Shown: one piece after another, positions 56,465 to 64,000 of the stretch
How the letters are laid out: each line of letters starts with the position of its first letter
Position numbering within the stretch: the first letter of the stretch is position 1
Assembly (NCBI GenBank): GCA_963813335.1
Contig: CAWEYL010000005.1
Location: 32,001 to 96,000, forward strand
From: an uncultured Chloroflexia bacterium
GTDB taxonomy: Bacteria > Chloroflexota > Limnocylindria > Limnocylindrales > CSP1-4
Reading direction: 5' to 3'
DNA: 64,000 bases
The notes under the pieces: generated by a model
Database searches by the model: none
Told to the model about the DNA's origin: nothing
Seen by the model: the letters and a program-made list of their open reading frames with translations, nothing else
Program-made: the position numbers and the translations under genes

Positions 56465-57520
56465 ATGCGACCGGTCGCCGTCCGCATCCTCCACCCGGTG
56501 CCCGGCGCGACCGCCGGGCCGATCGAGTGCTGGGTCGGCGAGGCCCGGCGACGCCTCGCCGAACGGCACCGCCGAGGATTCGCGGCCGCGGGCGCGAGCG
56601 ATGTCCGGGTCGTCAGCTGGCCGCCCGACGATACACCGTTCGGCCGGCGCCTCCGCGAGCTGGTCAGCACCGAGCGGCCCGACGGGCTGGTGGTCCTCGG
56701 CTCGGGCTCGATCCCGCTGGCGACCCTCGCCGACCGCCGCGACCTCGTCCGGGCAGCAGGCTCCGGGGACCGGCGGGCGCTCGCCAACGACCGCTATTCG
56801 GCCGACGTGGTCGCGGTCGCGTCCGCGGCGGATGCCCTCGCGGACCTGCCCGACGACCTCGGCGACAACGCGCTGCCGCGCTGGCTGTCGGAGGTCCGCG
56901 GCTGGGCCGTGGACGACCTCCGGCGGCGGTGGCGGCTCACGGTCGACATCGACGGCCCGCTCGACCTGGTCCTCGCCGGCGATGCCGGCGAGCTCGCCAC
57001 GGAGGAGGCGCGGCGCATCGACACCGGCCACGTCCGCGGCCGCCTCGACGCCATCCGTGCGCTCGCGTCCGACCCGGGCGCCGAGCTGCTGATCGCCGGG
57101 CGGACCTCATCGGCGACACTCGCCTGGTACGAGCGGCACACCGCGTCCCGGACACGGGCGCTGGTCGAGGAGCGCGGGCTGCGCACGCGACGCGCCGGCC
57201 AGCGCGCGCCTGCCTCGGTCCTCGGCGCGTTGCTGGACCACGATGGGGCCGGTTCGCTCGGCACGCACCTCGCGCGCCTCGCCGATGGCGCCCTCATCGA
57301 CACCCGGGTCCTCCTCGCCCACCGGCTCGGGGCGGACGAGCGGGCGTGGCCGCCGGCGGAGGACCGGTTCGCGTCGGACCTGCTGCTCCACGGGGCCATC
57401 CGCGACCCGTGGCTCCGCGACCTCACCCGCGCCGCGGCGGACGCACCCATCCCGGTCCTGCTCGGCGGGCACACGCTGGTCGGCCCGGGCGCGCGCCTCG
57501 TGCTCCGCGGGCAACGCTGA
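56465..57520 (+). CDS. Hypothetical protein with a CofC/GT-A nucleotidyltransferase-like N-terminal domain
   Basis: PFGRRLREL, GSGSIPL, NDRYSAD, DIDGPLDL (compare DVDTPxDL); C-terminal GGHTLVGPG. Confidence 0.6.
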   Translation: MRPVAVRILHPVPGATAGPIECWVGEARRRLAERHRRGFAAAGASDVRVVSWPPDDTPFGRRLRELVSTERPDGLVVLGSGSIPLATLADRRDLVRAAGSGDRRALANDRYSADVVAVASAADALADLPDDLGDNALPRWLSEVRGWAVDDLRRRWRLTVDIDGPLDLVLAGDAGELATEEARRIDTGHVRGRLDAIRALASDPGAELLIAGRTSSATLAWYERHTASRTRALVEERGLRTRRAGQRAPASVLGALLDHDGAGSLGTHLARLADGALIDTRVLLAHRLGADERAWPPAEDRFASDLLLHGAIRDPWLRDLTRAAADAPIPVLLGGHTLVGPGARLVLRGQR

Positions 57521-57530
57521 GGCCCGCGCG

Positions 57531-58754
57531 GTGGACCCCGTCTTCGGCCTGCGACGCGACGCGGCGCCCGACCTCGACGCGGTGGGCGAGGACGAGGCGC
57601 TCGCGGCCCGGATCCGCGCGGAGATCGAGCGCGACGGCCCGATGACCTTCGCGCGGTTCATGGACCTGGCCCTGTACGACCCCGACGGCGGCTACTACCG
57701 GGCGACCGATGCGCGGCCGGGTCGGGCGGGCGACTTCCTGACCGCGCCGGAGATCCATCCGGTCTTCGGCTGGGCGCTGGCGGGCCTGCTCGACGAGGCC
57801 TGGCGGCGGCTCGGCCGGCCGCGCCCGTTCGTGCTCCGCGAGCACGGCGCGGGGACCGGGACGCTCGCACTCGCCATCCTCGAGCGGCTCGGGCGGACCG
57901 GGTCGGGGTTGCGCGACGTCATCGCCTACGACCCGATCGAGGTCGAACCGGGACGCCTCGAGACCATCGCCGACCGGCTGGCCGCGGCCGGCGCCGCCGA
58001 CCGCCTGCTCGCCCCGGACCGGCGCGACGGTCCGGTCGTGGGGGTCGTGCTCGCCAACGAGGTCCTGGACGCGCTCCCGGTCCATCGCGTCCGCCAGCGC
58101 GGGACCCGCCTCGTCGAGATCGCGGTGGGGCTCGACGAGGGCGCGTTCGTCGATGTCGAGATCGAGCCGTCGAGCCTGGCGCTCGCGGCCCGGCTCGCCG
58201 CCGAGGGCATCGAGCTCGCCGACGGCCAGGCCGCCGAGATCTGCCTCGCCCTCGACCGCTGGGTCGCCGGGACGGCCGCCGGCCTCGAGCGCGGCCTGCT
58301 CCTGCTGATCGACTACGGCGCCCCCGCGGCGGAGCTGTACGACCCGGTCCGGCGTCGCGATGGCACGCTCATGGCCTACCTGCGCCATCGCGCGTCGCAC
58401 GAGCCCTATGCCCACATCGGGCGCCAGGACCTGACCGCCCACGTCGATGTCACCGCCGTCGAGCGGGCCGCGGCCGCGGCCGGTCTCAGTCACCTGGCGA
58501 CCACGACGCAGGCCGAGCTCCTCGTCGGGCTGGGCACCGAGGGTCTGCTGCGCGAGGTCCAGGAGGACCCGGCAACGAGCCTCGAGTCCTACCTCGAGCT
58601 GCGCTCGGCCCTGATGCGCCTGCTCGACCCGTCGGCGATGGGACGGTTCCGGGTGATGGCATTCGGGCGCGACTGGCCGGACGGTCCGCCGCTCGAGGGC
58701 CTCGCCTTCCGCATGCCCCGCCGGCCGTCCGCCGAACGGATGCCGTCCGACTAG
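57531..58754 (+). CDS. MidA/NDUFAF7-family SAM-dependent methyltransferase
   Basis: GPMTFARFMDLALYDP..GYY, GDFLTAPE, EHGAGTGTLA, ANEVLDALPV, IDYG, QDLTAHVD. Confidence 0.92.
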   Translation: MDPVFGLRRDAAPDLDAVGEDEALAARIRAEIERDGPMTFARFMDLALYDPDGGYYRATDARPGRAGDFLTAPEIHPVFGWALAGLLDEAWRRLGRPRPFVLREHGAGTGTLALAILERLGRTGSGLRDVIAYDPIEVEPGRLETIADRLAAAGAADRLLAPDRRDGPVVGVVLANEVLDALPVHRVRQRGTRLVEIAVGLDEGAFVDVEIEPSSLALAARLAAEGIELADGQAAEICLALDRWVAGTAAGLERGLLLLIDYGAPAAELYDPVRRRDGTLMAYLRHRASHEPYAHIGRQDLTAHVDVTAVERAAAAAGLSHLATTTQAELLVGLGTEGLLREVQEDPATSLESYLELRSALMRLLDPSAMGRFRVMAFGRDWPDGPPLEGLAFRMPRRPSAERMPSD

Positions 58755-59111: not shown

Positions 59112-59470
59112 TTGACCGGCATCTGGTACATCGTGGGCTTCGCCTTCGCCGGCGTCTCGTTCGTGTTCCTGACGATCGGCGCCGCGTGGCTCATCTCGCA
59201 CCGCAACCAGGGCGACGAGCACAAGGGCCTGCCCTACGAATCCGGGATCGACACCTACGGTGACACCCACGGCCGGTTCGGCCTGTCGTTCTACATCTAC
59301 GCCCTGCTCTTCGTCGCCTTCGACATCGAGGTCGTCTTCATCTACCTCTGGGCGATCATCTTCCGCTCGATCGGCTCGTGGGCGGCCTCGTGAGCATGTT
59401 CATCTTCGTGGCCATCCTGCTGCTCGGGCTCGCCTACGCCTGGCGCAAGGGCGTGCTCACGTGGCGCTGA
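59112..59470 (+). CDS. nuoA: NADH-quinone oxidoreductase subunit A; frameshifted
   Basis: [35 protein letters not shown] (shifted frame). Confidence 0.92.
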
Positions 59471-60174
59471 CCCCGCCGCGCGATCCGGCGGCGCCCCGCA
59501 GCGACCTGCCCGCCACCGCGGGCTCGAGCGAGCTGATCGTGCCGCTCGTCGTCCCGAACACGCTCTGGCAGGCGGACGATCCCGAGGCATACGACGGCGG
59601 CCGCGAGAGCGACATCACCCACCTGCGCGAGTACGAGGCGAGCGGCGCTGGGTCGCCGCGACGACGCGCGCTGGAGCGGCGTCCTCGAGGTCATCCCGAC
59701 CAAGGCGGACTACGTCCTGGACCTGATCCGGCGAACAGCCTGTGGCCGCTGCTGTCCGGCCTCGCCTGCTGCGCGATCGAGATGATGTCCGCGGCCACCT
59801 CGAAGAACGACATGGACCGCTGGGGCATGTTCCCGTTCCGGGCCAGCCCGCGCCAGGCGGACGTGCTGATCGTCGCCGGCACGCTGACCACCAAGATGGC
59901 CGGCCCGCTGGTCCGCCTCTGGGAGCAGATGCCGGAGCCCAAGTGGTGCGTGGCGCTGGGCGACTGCACCTGCTCGGGCGGCCGCTACAAGCGGAGCTAC
60001 TCCACGGTCGAGGGGATCGACCGGGTGATGCCGGTCGACGTCTACATCCCGGGCTGCCCGCCCCGCCCCGAGGGCCTCATCTACGGGATGATGAAGCTCC
60101 AGCAGCTGGTCAAGGAGCGCCGCGGCCACTGGCCCGATCGCGCCATCGGCCCCACCGTGCCGGAGGGCGTCTGA
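59461..60174 (+). CDS. nuoB: NADH-quinone oxidoreductase subunit B; N-terminus frameshifted
   Basis: [35 protein letters not shown]. Confidence 0.94.
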
Positions 60175-60745
60175 GCGTGGATCGACGGCTTCAAGGCACG
60201 CCTCGAGGCGCGCTTCGCCGACCAGCTGACGGGACCCGTCCGCCAGCGCCATGACGAGACCGAGATCCGCATCGCGGCGGGCGACGTCGTGCCGGTCCTG
60301 ACGCGCCCTCCATGACGAGCCGGCGTTCCACTTCGAGTTCCTGGCGGACCTCGCGGGCGTCGACACCGGCCAGGTCATGCAGGTCGTCTACCACCTGTGG
60401 AGCGAGACCACGCCGGACTGGCTGCGCGTCATCGCCGACGGCCTGTCCCGCGAGGACCCGCGCGTCCCGTCCGCGACGTTCCTCTGGAAGGGCGCCGAGT
60501 GGATGGAGCGCGAGGCCTACGACATGTTCGGCATCACGTTCGAGGGCAACCGCGACCTGCGCCGGATCTACATGCCGCCCGACTACACGAGCTTCCCGCT
60601 CCGCAAGGACTTCTACCTGGCCGACGACGCCGCGCGCTCGCCCGGCGGCGGGCGTCCGGCCGATGGAGCGCACCCACGCCCCGACGGCGGCGCCGGCCTC
60701 GGCGCTCGTCCGCCGGTCGCCGGCGTGACCGAGGACCGCCCGTGA
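60175..60745 (+). CDS. nuoC: NADH-quinone oxidoreductase subunit C; frameshifted
   Basis: VVYHL, VPSATFLW..AEWMEREAYDMFGITFEG..DLRRI, PLRKDF. Confidence 0.9.
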
Positions 60746-61963
60746 CGACGACCACCCGACGCCCGTCCCTCGACGACCCGCGCGTCCCGCTCGACCGCGA
60801 GCTGGGCGTCTTCGAGCCGATCCCGCCGTACCCGCCGCGGACCGAGCGCGAGGCCGAGTTCTACACGCTCGGCGACGGCGAGATGCTGATCAACATCGGC
60901 CCGCAGCACCCGTCGACCCACGGCGTGCTCCGCGTCGTGCTCAAGCTCGACGGCGAGAAGGTCGTCGACCTCGACCCGGTCCTCGGCTACCTCCATCGCG
61001 GCGTCGAGAAGCTGTGCGAGAACGCCGACTACCACCAGGCGATCTGCTACATCGACCCGCTCGAGTACGTCAGCTCGCTCTTCTGCGAGTGGCCCGGCGT
61101 CATGGCCTTCGAGAAGCTCCTCGACGTCCAGGTCCCGCGCCGCGCGGAGTACATCCGCGTCCTCGCTACCGAGCTCAACCGGATCGCCAGCCACGCGCTG
61201 TTCCTCGGCTGGATGGCCCTGGACCTCGGCGGCCTCACGCCGATCCTCTGGTCGTTCATCGAGCGCGACGAGATCGTCGAGATGCTGGCGTCGCTCACCG
61301 GCCAGCGGATGCTCTTCAACTACATGCGCATCGGCGGCGTCAACGGCGACCTGAACCACGAGTTCATGAGCCGCCTCGGCGACTGGATGTCGCACGCGAC
61401 CGAGCAGATCGAGGCCGGCAACGCGCTGCTCAACGAGAACGAGATCTTCGTCCGCCGGATGCGCGGCCTCGGCGTCATCGACTCGAAGACGGCCCTGCGG
61501 ATGGCGATGACCGGCCCGAACCTGCGCGCGACCGGCCTGCCGTTCGACGTCCGCCGGGCGCACCCGTACTGCGTCTACCCGGAGCTCGAGTTCGACATCC
61601 CGACGCGCGCCGAGGGCGACTGCCTGGCCCGCTACCTGCTCCGCATGGACGAGATCAAGCAGAGCCTGCGGATCATCGACCAGTGCCTCCACCAGATGCC
61701 CGACGGCCCGGTCATGGCCAAGCTCCCGCGCCTGCTCCGGCCGCGGCCCGGCCAGCGCGTACGCCGCGATCGAGGGCCCGCGCGGCCAGTACGCGGCCTA
61801 CGCCATCAGCGACGGCACCGACCAGCCGTTCCGGATGCGCATCCACGACCCCTCGTTCGTCCACCTCCAGTCGGTCGGCCTGATGATGCCCGGCCACCTC
61901 GTCGCCGACACGATGGCGGTCATGGCCTCCCTCGACCCGATCATGGGCGGCGTCGACAAGTGA
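60742..61963 (+). CDS. nuoD: NADH-quinone oxidoreductase subunit D; frameshift near 61755
   Basis: NIGPQHPSTHGVLR, GYLHRGVEK, ELNRIASH, IEGPRG and [11 protein letters not shown] (shifted frame). Confidence 0.94.
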
Positions 61964-63304
61964 CGGTCGATCGGTCGGTCCGTGGTCGCGCCTGACCTTG
62001 CCGGGCAAGGTCATCTTCACCGTGGTGCCGGTGCTGCTGGCGTCGCTGATCGCGCTCGTCGCGGTCGTCGCGATCCTCGGGCCGACCATCGTCGACTTCC
62101 TCGCGAACAACCTGCCGATCGTCCGCTTCGTCGTCGCGGTGACGGTCGTCCTGCTGATGACCGTGCCGACGGCCTTCCTGATCATCTACATGGAGATGAA
62201 GGTCATCGCGCTGATGAACCTGCGGATCGGCCCGGACCGGGTGGGCCCGTTCGGGTCGCTCGCTGTCGGTGGTCCACGGGCTCAAGGTCCTCATGAAGGA
62301 GGACTTCACGCCGACCGGCGCCGACCCGATCGTCTTCACGTGGGCGCCGGTCGTCGTCTACCTCGCCAGCGTCATGAGCCTGCTGGTCATCCCGTTCGCT
62401 CCCGGGCTCTTCGGGCAGGACCTCAACCTCGGGCTGCTCTACTTCTTCGCGATCGGCGGCCTGTCGGTCGTCGGCCTGCTGATGGCCGGCTGGTCGAGCT
62501 TCAACAAGTACTCGCTGCTGGGCGGGCTGCGCTCCGCGGCCCAGGTCGTCAGCTACGAGATCCCGCTCACCCTGTCGGTCGTCGGGATCATCCTGCTGGC
62601 CGGCACGATGAGCCTCAACCAGATCGTCCTGGACCAGGGCGGCTGGTTCATCGACTGGTACATCTTCCGCCAGCCGCTCGGCTTCCTGATCTTCTTCATC
62701 GCCGCGACCGCGGAGGCGAACCGGACCCCGTTCGACCTGACCGAGGCGGACTCCGAGATCGTCGCCGGCTTCGCCACCGAGTACTCGGGCATGCGCTTCG
62801 GGTTCTTCTTCTTCGCCGAGTACGTGAACGTGTTCATCATCTCGGCCCTGACCGTGACCCTGTTCTTCGGCGGCTGGAACGCGCCGTTCCCCTGGCCGTG
62901 GCCGGTCACCGTCAACCTCGACCCGGGCGAGCCTCGGGATCGTGCTGCTGCTCCTCGTCGCGATCGTCCCGCTGGTCGTGACGCTGGTCTTCGCGGCCCC
63001 GTTCTGGCTCGCGTCGTCGCGGATCAAGGGCTGGCAGGCGCTCATCGTCGGCTTCGTGCTCGCGAACATCTTCATCGTCGCCGTCATCGGCGCCTGGGCG
63101 TACATCGGGCTCGACTGGGTCGCCGGCCTCGTCTGGTTCCTGGGCAAGACCTACGTCTTCGTGTTCACGTTCGTGTGGATGCGCGGCACGCTGCCCCGCG
63201 TGCGCATCGACCAGCTCATGGACTTCGCCTGGAAGTGGCTGCTGCCCGCCGCGCTGCTCAACCTGTTCGTGACCGCGACGGCGATCGTGGTGGTGGGCAA
63301 GTGA
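61960..63304 (+). CDS. nuoH: NADH-quinone oxidoreductase subunit H with extra TM segments; frameshifted
   Basis: [65 protein letters not shown]. Confidence 0.92.
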
Positions 63305-63979
63305 TCAACGAGCTGATCCCGGGCCTCGGCATCGTCAAGGGCATGGCGCTGACCCTGCGCCGCTTCTTCGAGCCGAAGGTCACGGTCATGTACCCGGAGG
63401 TGCCGGTCGACGTCTCGCCCAAGTTCCGCGGCCGGCTCCAGCTCCTGTACGACGAGTACGGCACGCTCAAGTGCGAGACGTGCTTCCAGTGCGCCCAGGC
63501 CTGCCCGATCGAGTGCATCGACATGGGCGGCATGGACACCCGCGGCCGGTTCCACGTCCACTGGGGCGCGCCGGAGACCTACGGCGAGCGTCGCGAGGAA
63601 TCCGCGCTGCGGCGCTCCGGCCGCCCGGTCCCCGACCCGGCCTACCGGCCGTTCGCAGGCGGTCGACCTCGCGACGGTCGACGCGATCCTCGAGACCTAC
63701 GACCACGACCCGGCGCACCTGCTCGCGATCCTCGAGGAGACACAGGCCGCCTACGGATACCTGCCGGTCGCCGCGCTCAAGCGGATCAGCCAGCTCACCG
63801 GCACCTGGTACGCGATGATCTACGGCACCGCGTCGTACTACTCGCACCTGCGCTTCGAGCCCGCCGAGGCGGCCGACCAGGCGGCCGCGATGGCCGCCCA
63901 CCGACCGGCCGAGACCGCCTACCTCGCGGCCCTCGGGACGGCCCTCGGTGGCGGCACGGCCCAGCGGGCGGACGCGTGA
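63301..63979 (+). CDS. Fusion of the NuoI N-terminal half (one 4Fe-4S motif) with a NuoE-like N-terminal helical domain; one frameshift near 63660
   Basis: VTVMYPE...KFRGRL...[17 protein letters not shown]; then in the +1 frame [16 protein letters not shown]...[15 protein letters not shown]; stop at 63979. Confidence 0.75.
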
Positions 63980-63981
63980 CC

Positions 63982-64000
63982 ATGGCGACCCTGCTGAAGA
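63982..64000 (+). CDS. Start of the next gene (position suggests a nuoF-like gene), truncated by the window edge
   Basis: ATG 2 nt after the upstream stop (MATLLK); identity from context only. Confidence 0.35.

Follow-up and report, generated by a model that had tools for sequence, protein, structure and literature searches.

A complex I operon of Limnocylindria in which NuoI appears to be split between two fusion genes of a putative NfnABC/StnABC-like input module

The fusion gene downstream of nuoH

We analyzed a window of 64,000 nucleotides from an uncultured Chloroflexia bacterium of the order Limnocylindrales (assembly GCA_963813335.1; positions 32,001 to 96,000 of contig CAWEYL010000005.1, that is, G000:C5:32001-96000, where G000 denotes the window's genome, in 7 contigs). 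Our subject is a gene near the end of the window that lies in an operon for respiratory complex I (Nuo). Complex I is regarded as an assembly of conserved, separate core subunits. One of these, NuoI, canonically holds two [4Fe-4S] clusters, N6a and N6b, bound by eight cysteines in two CxxCxxCxxxCP motifs of one polypeptide. In the window, the gene that follows nuoH begins as NuoI and continues as NuoE. It comprises the following features:

63301..63979, + strand: nuoI_N::nuoE_N fusion gene, about 225 residues once a 1-nt indel near 63655 is discounted
63301..63558, + strand: N-terminal half of NuoI (amphipathic N-terminal helix, YPE..RGR segment, first iron–sulfur (Fe-S) motif, beta-hairpin)
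63472..63507, + strand: the sole CxxCxxCxxxCP [4Fe-4S] motif of the fusion gene
63559..63654, + strand: conserved connecting segment (HWG..E.Y.ERRE.SA.RR.GR.V.D..)
63655..63655, + strand: extra base (assembly indel) that breaks the frame
63680..63868, + strand: NuoE/NfnC-type helical N-domain, positions 2-64 of 145 of PF01257
63869..63976, + strand: Ala-rich tail without cysteine, in place of the thioredoxin-like [2Fe-2S] domain

The gene starts with GTG at 63301-63303, overlapping the nuoH stop codon at 63302-63304, and ends in the +1 frame with a stop codon at 63977-63979; the next ATG, that of a NuoF-like gene, is at 63982. A first-pass annotation, made from the sequence letters, had described a NuoI-type start with one CxxCxxCxxxCP motif, followed by a NuoE helical domain and no later cysteine. 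Open reading frame (ORF) reading and Pfam searches bore this out in every detail. In the first part, Pfam detected only sub-threshold Fer4 matches over the one motif (E 0.002-0.008; 16.7-18.5 bits against cut-offs of 25.5-35), and neither approach recovered a second CxxCxxCxxxCP motif 3' of 63507 in the fusion gene. The second part matched PF01257 (2Fe-2S_thioredx; E 2.6e-10, 40.8 bits, above the gathering cut-off of 24.8) at profile positions 2-64 of 145 only. This range corresponds to the helical N-domain, the part that contacts the NuoF-like flavoprotein in solved homologues. The thioredoxin-like four-cysteine [2Fe-2S] (N1a/C1) domain, which the first-pass annotation had reported as lacking, is indeed missing from the window gene, and no cysteine occurs beyond the NuoI motif region.

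Structural comparison agreed with the assignment of the second part. In an AlphaFold2 model of a same-genus ortholog, the helical N-domain was predicted with a predicted local distance difference test (pLDDT) score of 88-96, and the Ala-rich tail formed two helices with pLDDT of about 70-78. The top Foldseek match of the helical domain was NfnC of C. saccharolyticus (9bp5_C), with 44% identity and a root-mean-square deviation of 1.1 A across 66 columns; the next matches were 9n5u_C, 8oh5_A and 7p5h_C. The connecting segment starts at the point where canonical NuoI would enter its second motif. It contains 13 invariant columns in our alignment A1, and the alignment with canonical NuoI stops at its ..PGE.Y. 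position. The four cysteines and the proline of the N-half motif are likewise invariant, both in A1 (26/26) and in A3, an alignment that includes Ktedonobacterales forms (34/34).

Near 63655, the homology passes to the +1 frame of the window. We searched for both gene parts separately in 30 relatives, 18 from the same genus and 12 from a second family with genomes of about 1.1 Mb. The start-to-start distance of the two parts was a multiple of 3 in 30/30 relatives and 361 in the window's genome; the same-genus loci are single ORFs of about 219-231 residues. In addition, metagenome contigs from 3/3 public runs that covered the site showed a net change of -1 relative to the window. Contigs of runs X1 and X3 have one base fewer, at 63655, and those of X7 lose one base at 63644, gain a C after 63651 and lose another base at 63657. 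The contigs of all three runs also disagree with the window sequence at 5-41 further letters per piece and so come from close relatives, not necessarily from the same population; run X2 had no cover at 63655 and says nothing about the indel. Since all 30 relatives are in frame and the contigs lack the base, the frame break is an assembly indel error, and the single 1-nt correction called for by the first-pass annotation is justified.

The same weakness of the assembly is evident across the nuo genes of the window. They contain six frame changes in about 4.9 kb: one each in nuoA (~59370), nuoC (~60300) and nuoD (~61760), two in nuoH (~62255 and ~62935), and that in the fusion gene at 63655. The gene of a large downstream subunit on the window's contig contains one more, and contigs of X3 and X7 are also without the nuoH frame change at 62925. 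Considering six frame changes over so short a distance, the consensus quality is probably poor and other "broken" genes of this genome are probably artefacts too.

Two parts of NuoI on two subunits

The missing half of NuoI was found about 4 kb downstream of the fusion gene, beyond the window, at the C-terminus of a large NuoG-like subunit. In alignments with structures from the PDB, residues 9-93 of the ortholog's N-half correspond to residues 7-89 of M. smegmatis NuoI and 7-88 of T. thermophilus Nqo9. The last 99 residues of the large subunit correspond to Nqo9 88-128, E. coli NuoI 92-130 and P. denitrificans NuoI 93-139, including the segment after the motif. The N-half thus covers Nqo9 7-88 and the C-half 88-128, so that the two NuoI pieces abut.

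The same division was obtained with the NuoI model TIGR01971. In five of five genomes (G000, G282, G207, G019 and G076), profile positions 1-64 or 1-72 matched the fusion gene and positions 71-116 or 71-117 matched the C-terminus of the large subunit. The best match on the fusion gene reached 53.1 bits (positions 1-64), and in the window's genome these positions lie at G000:C5:95340-95534, which is window 63340-63534. No match in any of the five genomes exceeded the model's cut-off of 113.05 bits. The fusion gene thus has the NuoI-like N-terminus and the place right after nuoH, but not two CxxCxxCxxxCP motifs in one polypeptide; the second motif is on the large subunit. This orphan C-terminal motif is invariant in 18/18 aligned sequences and was present at 62/91 scanned loci (L025-L115), a set that includes at least two duplicates, loci whose flanking sequence does not extend to the gene, and two loci with a motif outside the search pattern.

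Together, the N-half and the C-half retain all eight cluster cysteines. From these alignments we conclude that NuoI is split, its second half being the C-terminus of the G-like subunit. The first-pass annotation had proposed a split with the second half on a downstream subunit, and the TIGR01971 matches in all five genomes support it. It had also suggested looking in related genomes for the same fusion and for the second NuoI motif: the former is present in all 30 relatives, and the latter was recovered on the large subunit. We considered the possibility that the N-half alone is a complete, single-cluster NuoI and rejected it, as the complementary half is always present downstream. We infer that the two halves may reassemble in trans into the NuoI fold with its two [4Fe-4S] clusters, N6a and N6b.

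To place these genes in their context, we used the clean operon at locus L027, found in a 1.2-Mb relative. Its gene order is nuoA-B-C-D-H-[I_N::E]-F-[G'::I_C]-J-K-L-M-N, and the window's contig has the same order; the fusion gene is therefore surrounded by the A, B, C, D, H, J, K, L, M and N genes of a complex I operon. The neighboring genes within the window are:

59112..61960, + strand: nuoA, nuoB, nuoC and nuoD, located by tblastn of the L027 operon against the window's contig; one frame change each in nuoA, nuoC and nuoD
61983..63304, + strand: nuoH, directly upstream of the fusion gene, with two assembly frameshifts; the only NuoH in the window's genome
63982..64000, + strand: start of the NuoF-like gene, which continues past the window to about G000:C5:97229

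At L027, the fusion protein has 273 residues, the NuoF-like (F-like) protein 419 and the large subunit 848. Pfam places in the large subunit, in this order, Fer2_4, Fer4_20, Pyr_redox_2, Fer4_Nqo3 with two Fe-S motifs, and the orphan CxxCxxCxxxCP motif near the C-terminus. Fer4_20 and Pyr_redox_2 represent the Fe-S and flavin adenine dinucleotide (FAD)/NAD(P)H domains of GltD-type enzymes, and no molybdopterin-like C-terminal domain was found by Pfam in the 848-residue protein. The first-pass annotation had imagined a shortened electron wire that bypasses NuoG; this part of its proposal is not supported, as the 848-residue subunit keeps the NuoG-type N-terminal Fe-S domain, with a [2Fe-2S] and a two-motif ferredoxin domain.

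Several further features of the operon were recorded. Immediately 5' of nuoA is an NDUFAF7-like gene (window 57243-58754, + strand), identified by eye and from comparable gene contexts described in a preprint, and another lies upstream of the L027 operon, with 41% identity to the window copy (tblastn). NuoH has about 435-446 residues in the window's and the Limnocylindrus families and 339 residues in a third family (61983-63304; L027:8132-9472; L111:7635-8654). The additional residues, about 100 in number, are hydrophobic, lie ahead of the last conserved helices and may form additional transmembrane segments. NuoB has an N-terminal extension of about 60-70 residues before its conserved domain (L027:5650-6369; window 59479-60171). 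Finally, in the window's family a tail rich in Gly, His and Asn (G-H-G and N-G-H runs) follows the conserved ..LPVLP.. segment at the end of the large subunit (L025:14504-14902 and many other loci); the Limnocylindrus family has no such tail.

Input module and distribution

The three genes of the input module were compared with solved structures. The large subunit matched C. saccharolyticus NfnA (9bov_A) with an E-value of 4.3e-164, residues 50-780 aligning to 6-700 of 1178, and S. ovata StnC (8oh5_C) with 3.1e-141; T. sibiricus NfnA (9n5u_A) was also among its closest solved relatives. The F-like subunit scored 293-301 bits against NfnB, HydB and StnB, compared with 224-237 bits against NuoF of M. 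smegmatis, E. coli and Thermus, and the closest solved relatives of the E-like subunit are HydC and NfnC. The entries 9BOV, 9N5U and 8OH5 are described in PMC11829005, PMC12018979 and PMC10482914, respectively; excerpts of the last identify StnC as a NuoG-GltD fusion. The E-F-G' genes thus resemble the NfnABC/StnABC (Bfu) enzymes more than they do canonical NuoEFG.

The state of the cofactor sites differs between the subunits. In the large subunit, the [2Fe-2S], GltD-like FAD/NADPH and NuoG-type ferredoxin domains expected of a Bfu A subunit are all present, and the FAD motif GxGxxG, the GGGxxxxD..YRR segment and the Fe-S motifs of the GltD part align with those of NfnA and StnC. In the E-like part, only the first C-x4-C pair is preserved in the long forms, and the canonical third and fourth cysteines occur in 0/23 of these sequences in A1. 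In these long forms, a C-x-C-x-x-C pattern and a conserved histidine stand where the four [2Fe-2S] cysteines would be (A1 columns ~190-245).

The F-like subunit is reduced to its core: residues 41-403 of its 419 align to 159-521 of the 602 residues of NfnB, and Pfam found no Fer4 domain in it, so that the C-terminal ferredoxin domain of BfuB (B3/B4) is lacking. The second cysteine of the N3/B1 cluster is replaced by Thr, Ser or Ala in 58/58 Limnocylindria rows and retained in 2/2 Ktedonobacterales-like rows. The variant N3 motif is identical in 53/60 rows, and the GEET motif and the Gly-rich loop are retained. At the place of the canonical NADE flavin motif, 55 rows have N-[GA]-Y-x, 2 have N-L-[MI]-G, and 3 did not match the pattern. 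Because these variant motifs are strongly conserved, the F-like subunit is under selection. According to excerpts of PMC11829005, the minimal bifurcation site of Bfu enzymes is the flavobicluster B1-FMN-C1 (FMN, flavin mononucleotide), and low-potential electrons exit via the C-terminal cluster domain of the B subunit. This BfuBC core is not intact here, the C1 ligands being incomplete or absent and B1 lacking its second cysteine in all 58 rows.

A second NuoE-like/NuoF-like pair, with Fer4 matches nearby, was observed at G000:C3:285329-287884; it may belong to a soluble NAD-linked dehydrogenase or to a Bfu-type enzyme. Genome G019 has one NuoF-like and one NuoE-like gene, both inside the split-NuoI operon.

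We then examined the distribution of the fusion. Source names and record titles of gene carriers read Chloroflexota, Ca. Limnocylindrales and Ca. Limnocylindrus. A pattern scan of species genomes yielded at least 593 stretches and at least 537 confirmed relatives. Among 80 genomes kept, 79 are titled Chloroflexi/Chloroflexota, Limnocylindr*, Ca. Aquidulcis, Chloroflexia or Anaerolineaceae, and one is titled "uncultured bacterium". In a sample of 300 genomes of the phylum, in which five unpublished genomes (G300, G202, G174, G068 and G256) count toward the overall tally only, a single match spanned both parts of the gene in 32/32 members of the window's class (15 + 2 + 15, from three families). 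In a third-family member (L111), the operon is the same, at about 37% identity, except for two additional genes ahead of nuoJ. These lie between the large subunit and nuoJ (L111:13297-14543) and encode 134 and 281 residues; by eye, the second resembles the metallo-beta-lactamase fold.

The members of the class differ in how much of NuoE they keep. The match reached the end of the thioredoxin-like domain in 8/15 genomes of the window's family and in 2/2 of the second family, and in the other 7/15 genomes of the window's family it stops at about residue 190-199, as in the window. The loss of the whole domain is therefore a secondary event inside one family, with most of the class keeping a degenerate domain. 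The portion left in the window coincides exactly with the N-terminal domain. In NAD(H)-bound structures, nothing of NfnC except this domain has been modelled (9bov_C, 67 residues, and 9n5v_C, 64 residues; template modelling scores of 0.93 and 0.88 on the target). Presumably, the static anchor on the flavoprotein was retained in the window's genus and the mobile cluster domain deleted.

Outside the class, among the matches listed (393 further matches), at least 12 genomes gave one match over residues 8 to at least 179. Two of these 12 were examined and contain, in a row, nuoB, an I_N::E_N-like gene of 227 codons' worth of protein, an F-like gene and a GltD-bearing subunit of 800-807 residues with the orphan C-terminal motif. 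These four-gene clusters are Ktedonobacterales-like and lie apart from a canonical nuo operon:

L113:4927-9938: nuoB, I_N::E_N-like, F-like, G'::I_C
L114:3743-8799, - strand: nuoB, I_N::E_N-like, F-like, G'::I_C

The 227-residue protein has no Pfam domain on record, and its relatives are named Ktedonobacterales, "ferredoxin" or "hypothetical" by their sources. In four Ktedonobacterales-like genomes, the split TIGR01971 pattern occurs together with a canonical NuoI that scores over the cut-off beside a canonical nuoH; one of the four has a second nuoH directly upstream of the split gene. Within Limnocylindria, G000, G282, G019 and G076 have one NuoH each, and G207 has two further weak matches. 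Neither an intact nuoI nor a second nuoH was found among four Limnocylindria genomes examined. For this class, the split operon constitutes the sole complex I.

Interpretation and relation to known systems

We consider it likely that a three-gene NfnABC/StnABC-like cassette sits inside nuoI, has lost bifurcation, and feeds the sole complex I, through a NuoI rebuilt from two chains, with electrons from NADPH, NADH or both. The cassette, comprising an E-like, an F-like and a G-like gene, the last with a GltD-type FAD/NADPH domain, would have come to lie between the two Fe-S motifs of nuoI in a host operon of the order A-B-C-D-H-I-J-K-L-M-N. The insertion would have produced two fusion genes, NuoI N-half::E-like and G-like::NuoI C-half, the G-like part being without the molybdopterin-like domain. 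The two halves would form the two-cluster fold beside NuoB and NuoD, with the large subunit tied to NuoI by its C-terminus and the E/F pair tied to it via the N-terminus of the E-like domain. In canonical complex I, the C-terminal domain of NuoG is a scaffold; here, the covalent ties of both input arms to the quinone module may stand in for it.

Electron flow in such an enzyme can be proposed from its homologues. NADPH would reduce the FAD of the GltD-like domain, and the electrons would follow an NfnA/StnC-type Fe-S chain to the junction cluster. From there, they would enter the branch that is a dead end in Stn and that here would be the NuoI C-half, and pass over N6a/N6b to N2 and quinone. 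The branch to the [2Fe-2S] and the F-like flavin may bring in NADH as a donor or permit exchange between the two nucleotides. With the B1-FMN-C1 site of Bfu enzymes incomplete, no electron bifurcation would take place. In a more far-reaching form, which we offer tentatively and regard as doubtful, the sole complex I of Limnocylindria and a second one in Ktedonobacteria would be a proton-pumping NADPH- and NADH-linked quinone reductase that arose by one in-frame insertion of a de-bifurcated NfnABC cassette into nuoI. If this holds, the pools of NADPH, NADH and quinone would be coupled by one membrane enzyme in which two different polypeptides together make up a core Fe-S subunit.

Several observations weigh against this explanation. 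The reassembly of the NuoI halves is read from sequence, and the NuoI half of the AlphaFold2 model has pLDDT below 50 at residues 23-115, a low confidence that is silent either way. NADH oxidation at the atypical NuoF-like flavin site is uncertain, and that subunit could be only structural. A second NuoE/NuoF pair exists elsewhere in the window's genome and in some relatives. Lastly, in one Ktedonobacterales-like genome the four genes follow nuoB and not nuoH, and a single insertion is only the most parsimonious reading.

Alternative explanations were weighed against the same evidence. That the gene is an assembly artefact or a pseudogene, with full-length nuoI and nuoE collapsed by a deletion or the gene dead by frameshift, is suggested by the frame broken near 63655 and the six frame changes in the window's nuo genes. 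However, the two parts share one frame in every relative searched, the architecture recurs throughout the sampled class, the connecting segment has 13 invariant columns, independent contigs are without the extra base, and an intact NuoI occurs in 0/5 genomes. The probability of an artefact is thus negligible, and the fusion is genuine, not the collapsed-assembly deletion that the first-pass annotation had itself considered. We find it highly improbable that the NuoI halves stay apart, the N-half serving as a membrane/NuoH anchor for the E/F pair and the C-terminal motif as part of the large subunit's ferredoxin domain. The preceding domain of the large subunit does already have two Fe-S motifs, and no complex prediction supported contact of the halves: when residues 1-115 of the N-half (A1) were paired with the final 100 residues of the large subunit (A2), the scores were 0.24 and 0.22 against a mark of 0.32, in uncontrolled runs that speak neither for nor against contact. 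Yet those two motifs already form a pair, as they do in HydA and StnC, and the last motif is left over as an orphan. Its sequence and tail can be aligned to the C-half of NuoI, the FE..A..R segment behind the motif included. Moreover, all four cysteines of the N-half motif are invariant, and if N6a/N6b were missing, electrons could not reach N2 in the sole complex I that these genomes have.

The remaining two alternatives concern what the module does. It might still bifurcate or confurcate like the predicted Nuo-Bfu, oxidizing NADH (or NADPH) and reduced ferredoxin together for quinone reduction, given that the cassette is homologous to the bifurcating NfnABC/StnABC and that Nuo-Bfu complexes are proposed for other phyla in passages of PMC9304861. 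We find this very unlikely: the C1 [2Fe-2S] ligands are incomplete across the class and their domain is absent in the window, the F-like subunit has neither the N-terminal nor the C-terminal cluster domain (B3/B4, the ferredoxin site) and is short of one B1 cysteine, and PMC11829005 gives B1-FMN-C1 as the minimal bifurcation site. Alternatively, the NuoF-like and E-like parts could be catalytically dead scaffolds in a strict NADPH:quinone oxidoreductase that works via the GltD-like FAD site. At the flavin site, Tyr stands in for the canonical Asp (Met or Ile does so in the class's other family), one N3 cysteine is gone in all Limnocylindria rows and the N1a/C1 site is lost, and the GltD motifs are intact. 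Nevertheless, the F-like subunit is strongly constrained in its N3 variant, GEET motif and Gly-rich loop, and both Ktedonobacterales-like rows have all N3 cysteines. In general, three cysteines plus another ligand can still hold an Fe-S cluster. Dead scaffolds are thus improbable, and we retain the de-bifurcated cassette with NADPH, NADH or both as donors.

Splitting a core Fe-S subunit and fusing each half to a different subunit of a foreign input module would be an unusual mode of docking, and a concrete example of modular evolution through insertion into a gene. The arrangement suggests that NADPH may donate electrons directly to respiration in a widespread class, which we take to live in freshwater and soil from general knowledge, record titles and wetland/soil run labels. 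The fusion is named "subunit E", "ferredoxin" or "hypothetical protein" by its sources. Given these names, and as no NuoI model match exceeds the cut-off, automated reconstructions likely score these organisms as having no NuoI or an incomplete complex I.

The first-pass annotation had called the arrangement undescribed, and our literature searches agree: for complex I of Limnocylindria, Chloroflexi and Ktedonobacter, they found no split NuoI, NuoI-NuoE fusion or GltD-bearing complex I, the supplements of PMC9304861 aside. Excerpts of a hidden Markov model survey of Nuo variants (bioRxiv 10.1101/2025.03.13.643058) mention only CD and BCD fusions. A heliorhodopsin preprint was considered as a precedent and rejected, since it concerns 11-subunit operons of Actinobacteria. 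Two elements are already known from excerpts of earlier work, namely predicted Bfu-type modules in nuo clusters (PMC9304861) and a GltD-related protein at the NuoI place in Mbx-like operons (PMC4758237).

The nearest known systems each share a part of the arrangement. In the passages on the predicted Nuo-Bfu (Schut et al. 2022, PMC9304861), a Bfu-type ABC module in the middle of a nuo cluster likewise replaces NuoEFG. It has 14 separate subunits and a full bifurcating BfuBC core, and is assigned to Deferribacteres, Proteobacteria, Planctomycetes and Nitrospirae; main-text passages of that paper, its supplementary tables aside, make no mention of a split NuoI, a GltD-type A subunit or a Chloroflexi Nuo type. 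Mbx-like operons, as presented in excerpts of Degli Esposti 2015 (PMC4758237), also place a GltD-type NAD(P)H site on a complex I-like membrane complex at the NuoI position, but there the flavoprotein substitutes for NuoI, whereas here both NuoI halves are kept, fused, together with a full Nuo membrane arm. The soluble counterparts NfnABC and StnABC (Bfu family; PDB 9BOV/9BP5, 9N5U, 8OH5) share the NuoE-, NuoF- and NuoG-like trio and the GltD-like FAD/NADPH domain inserted in the G-like subunit. They differ in that the module here is linked to the membrane via the NuoI halves, that the large subunit carries the NuoI C-half in place of an FdhF-like C-terminal domain, that additional cluster domains and one B1 cysteine are missing from the F-like subunit, and that the C1 site is lost.

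Compared with the canonical subunits, the fusion gene shares with NuoI (Nqo9/TYKY) the N-terminal helix, the YPE..RGR segment, the first CxxCxxCxxxCP motif and the place after nuoH, but is cut at about Nqo9 residue 88, with the second motif on another polypeptide. With NuoE (Nqo2/24 kDa) it shares the helical domain, but it is fused to a NuoI part; the [2Fe-2S] domain is absent from the window gene, and elsewhere in the class its ligands are incomplete. Finally, the 11-subunit complex I (nuoABCDHIJKLMN) has an identical backbone gene order around the position of the cassette; the operon described here differs from it in having an input module, and in having it inside nuoI.

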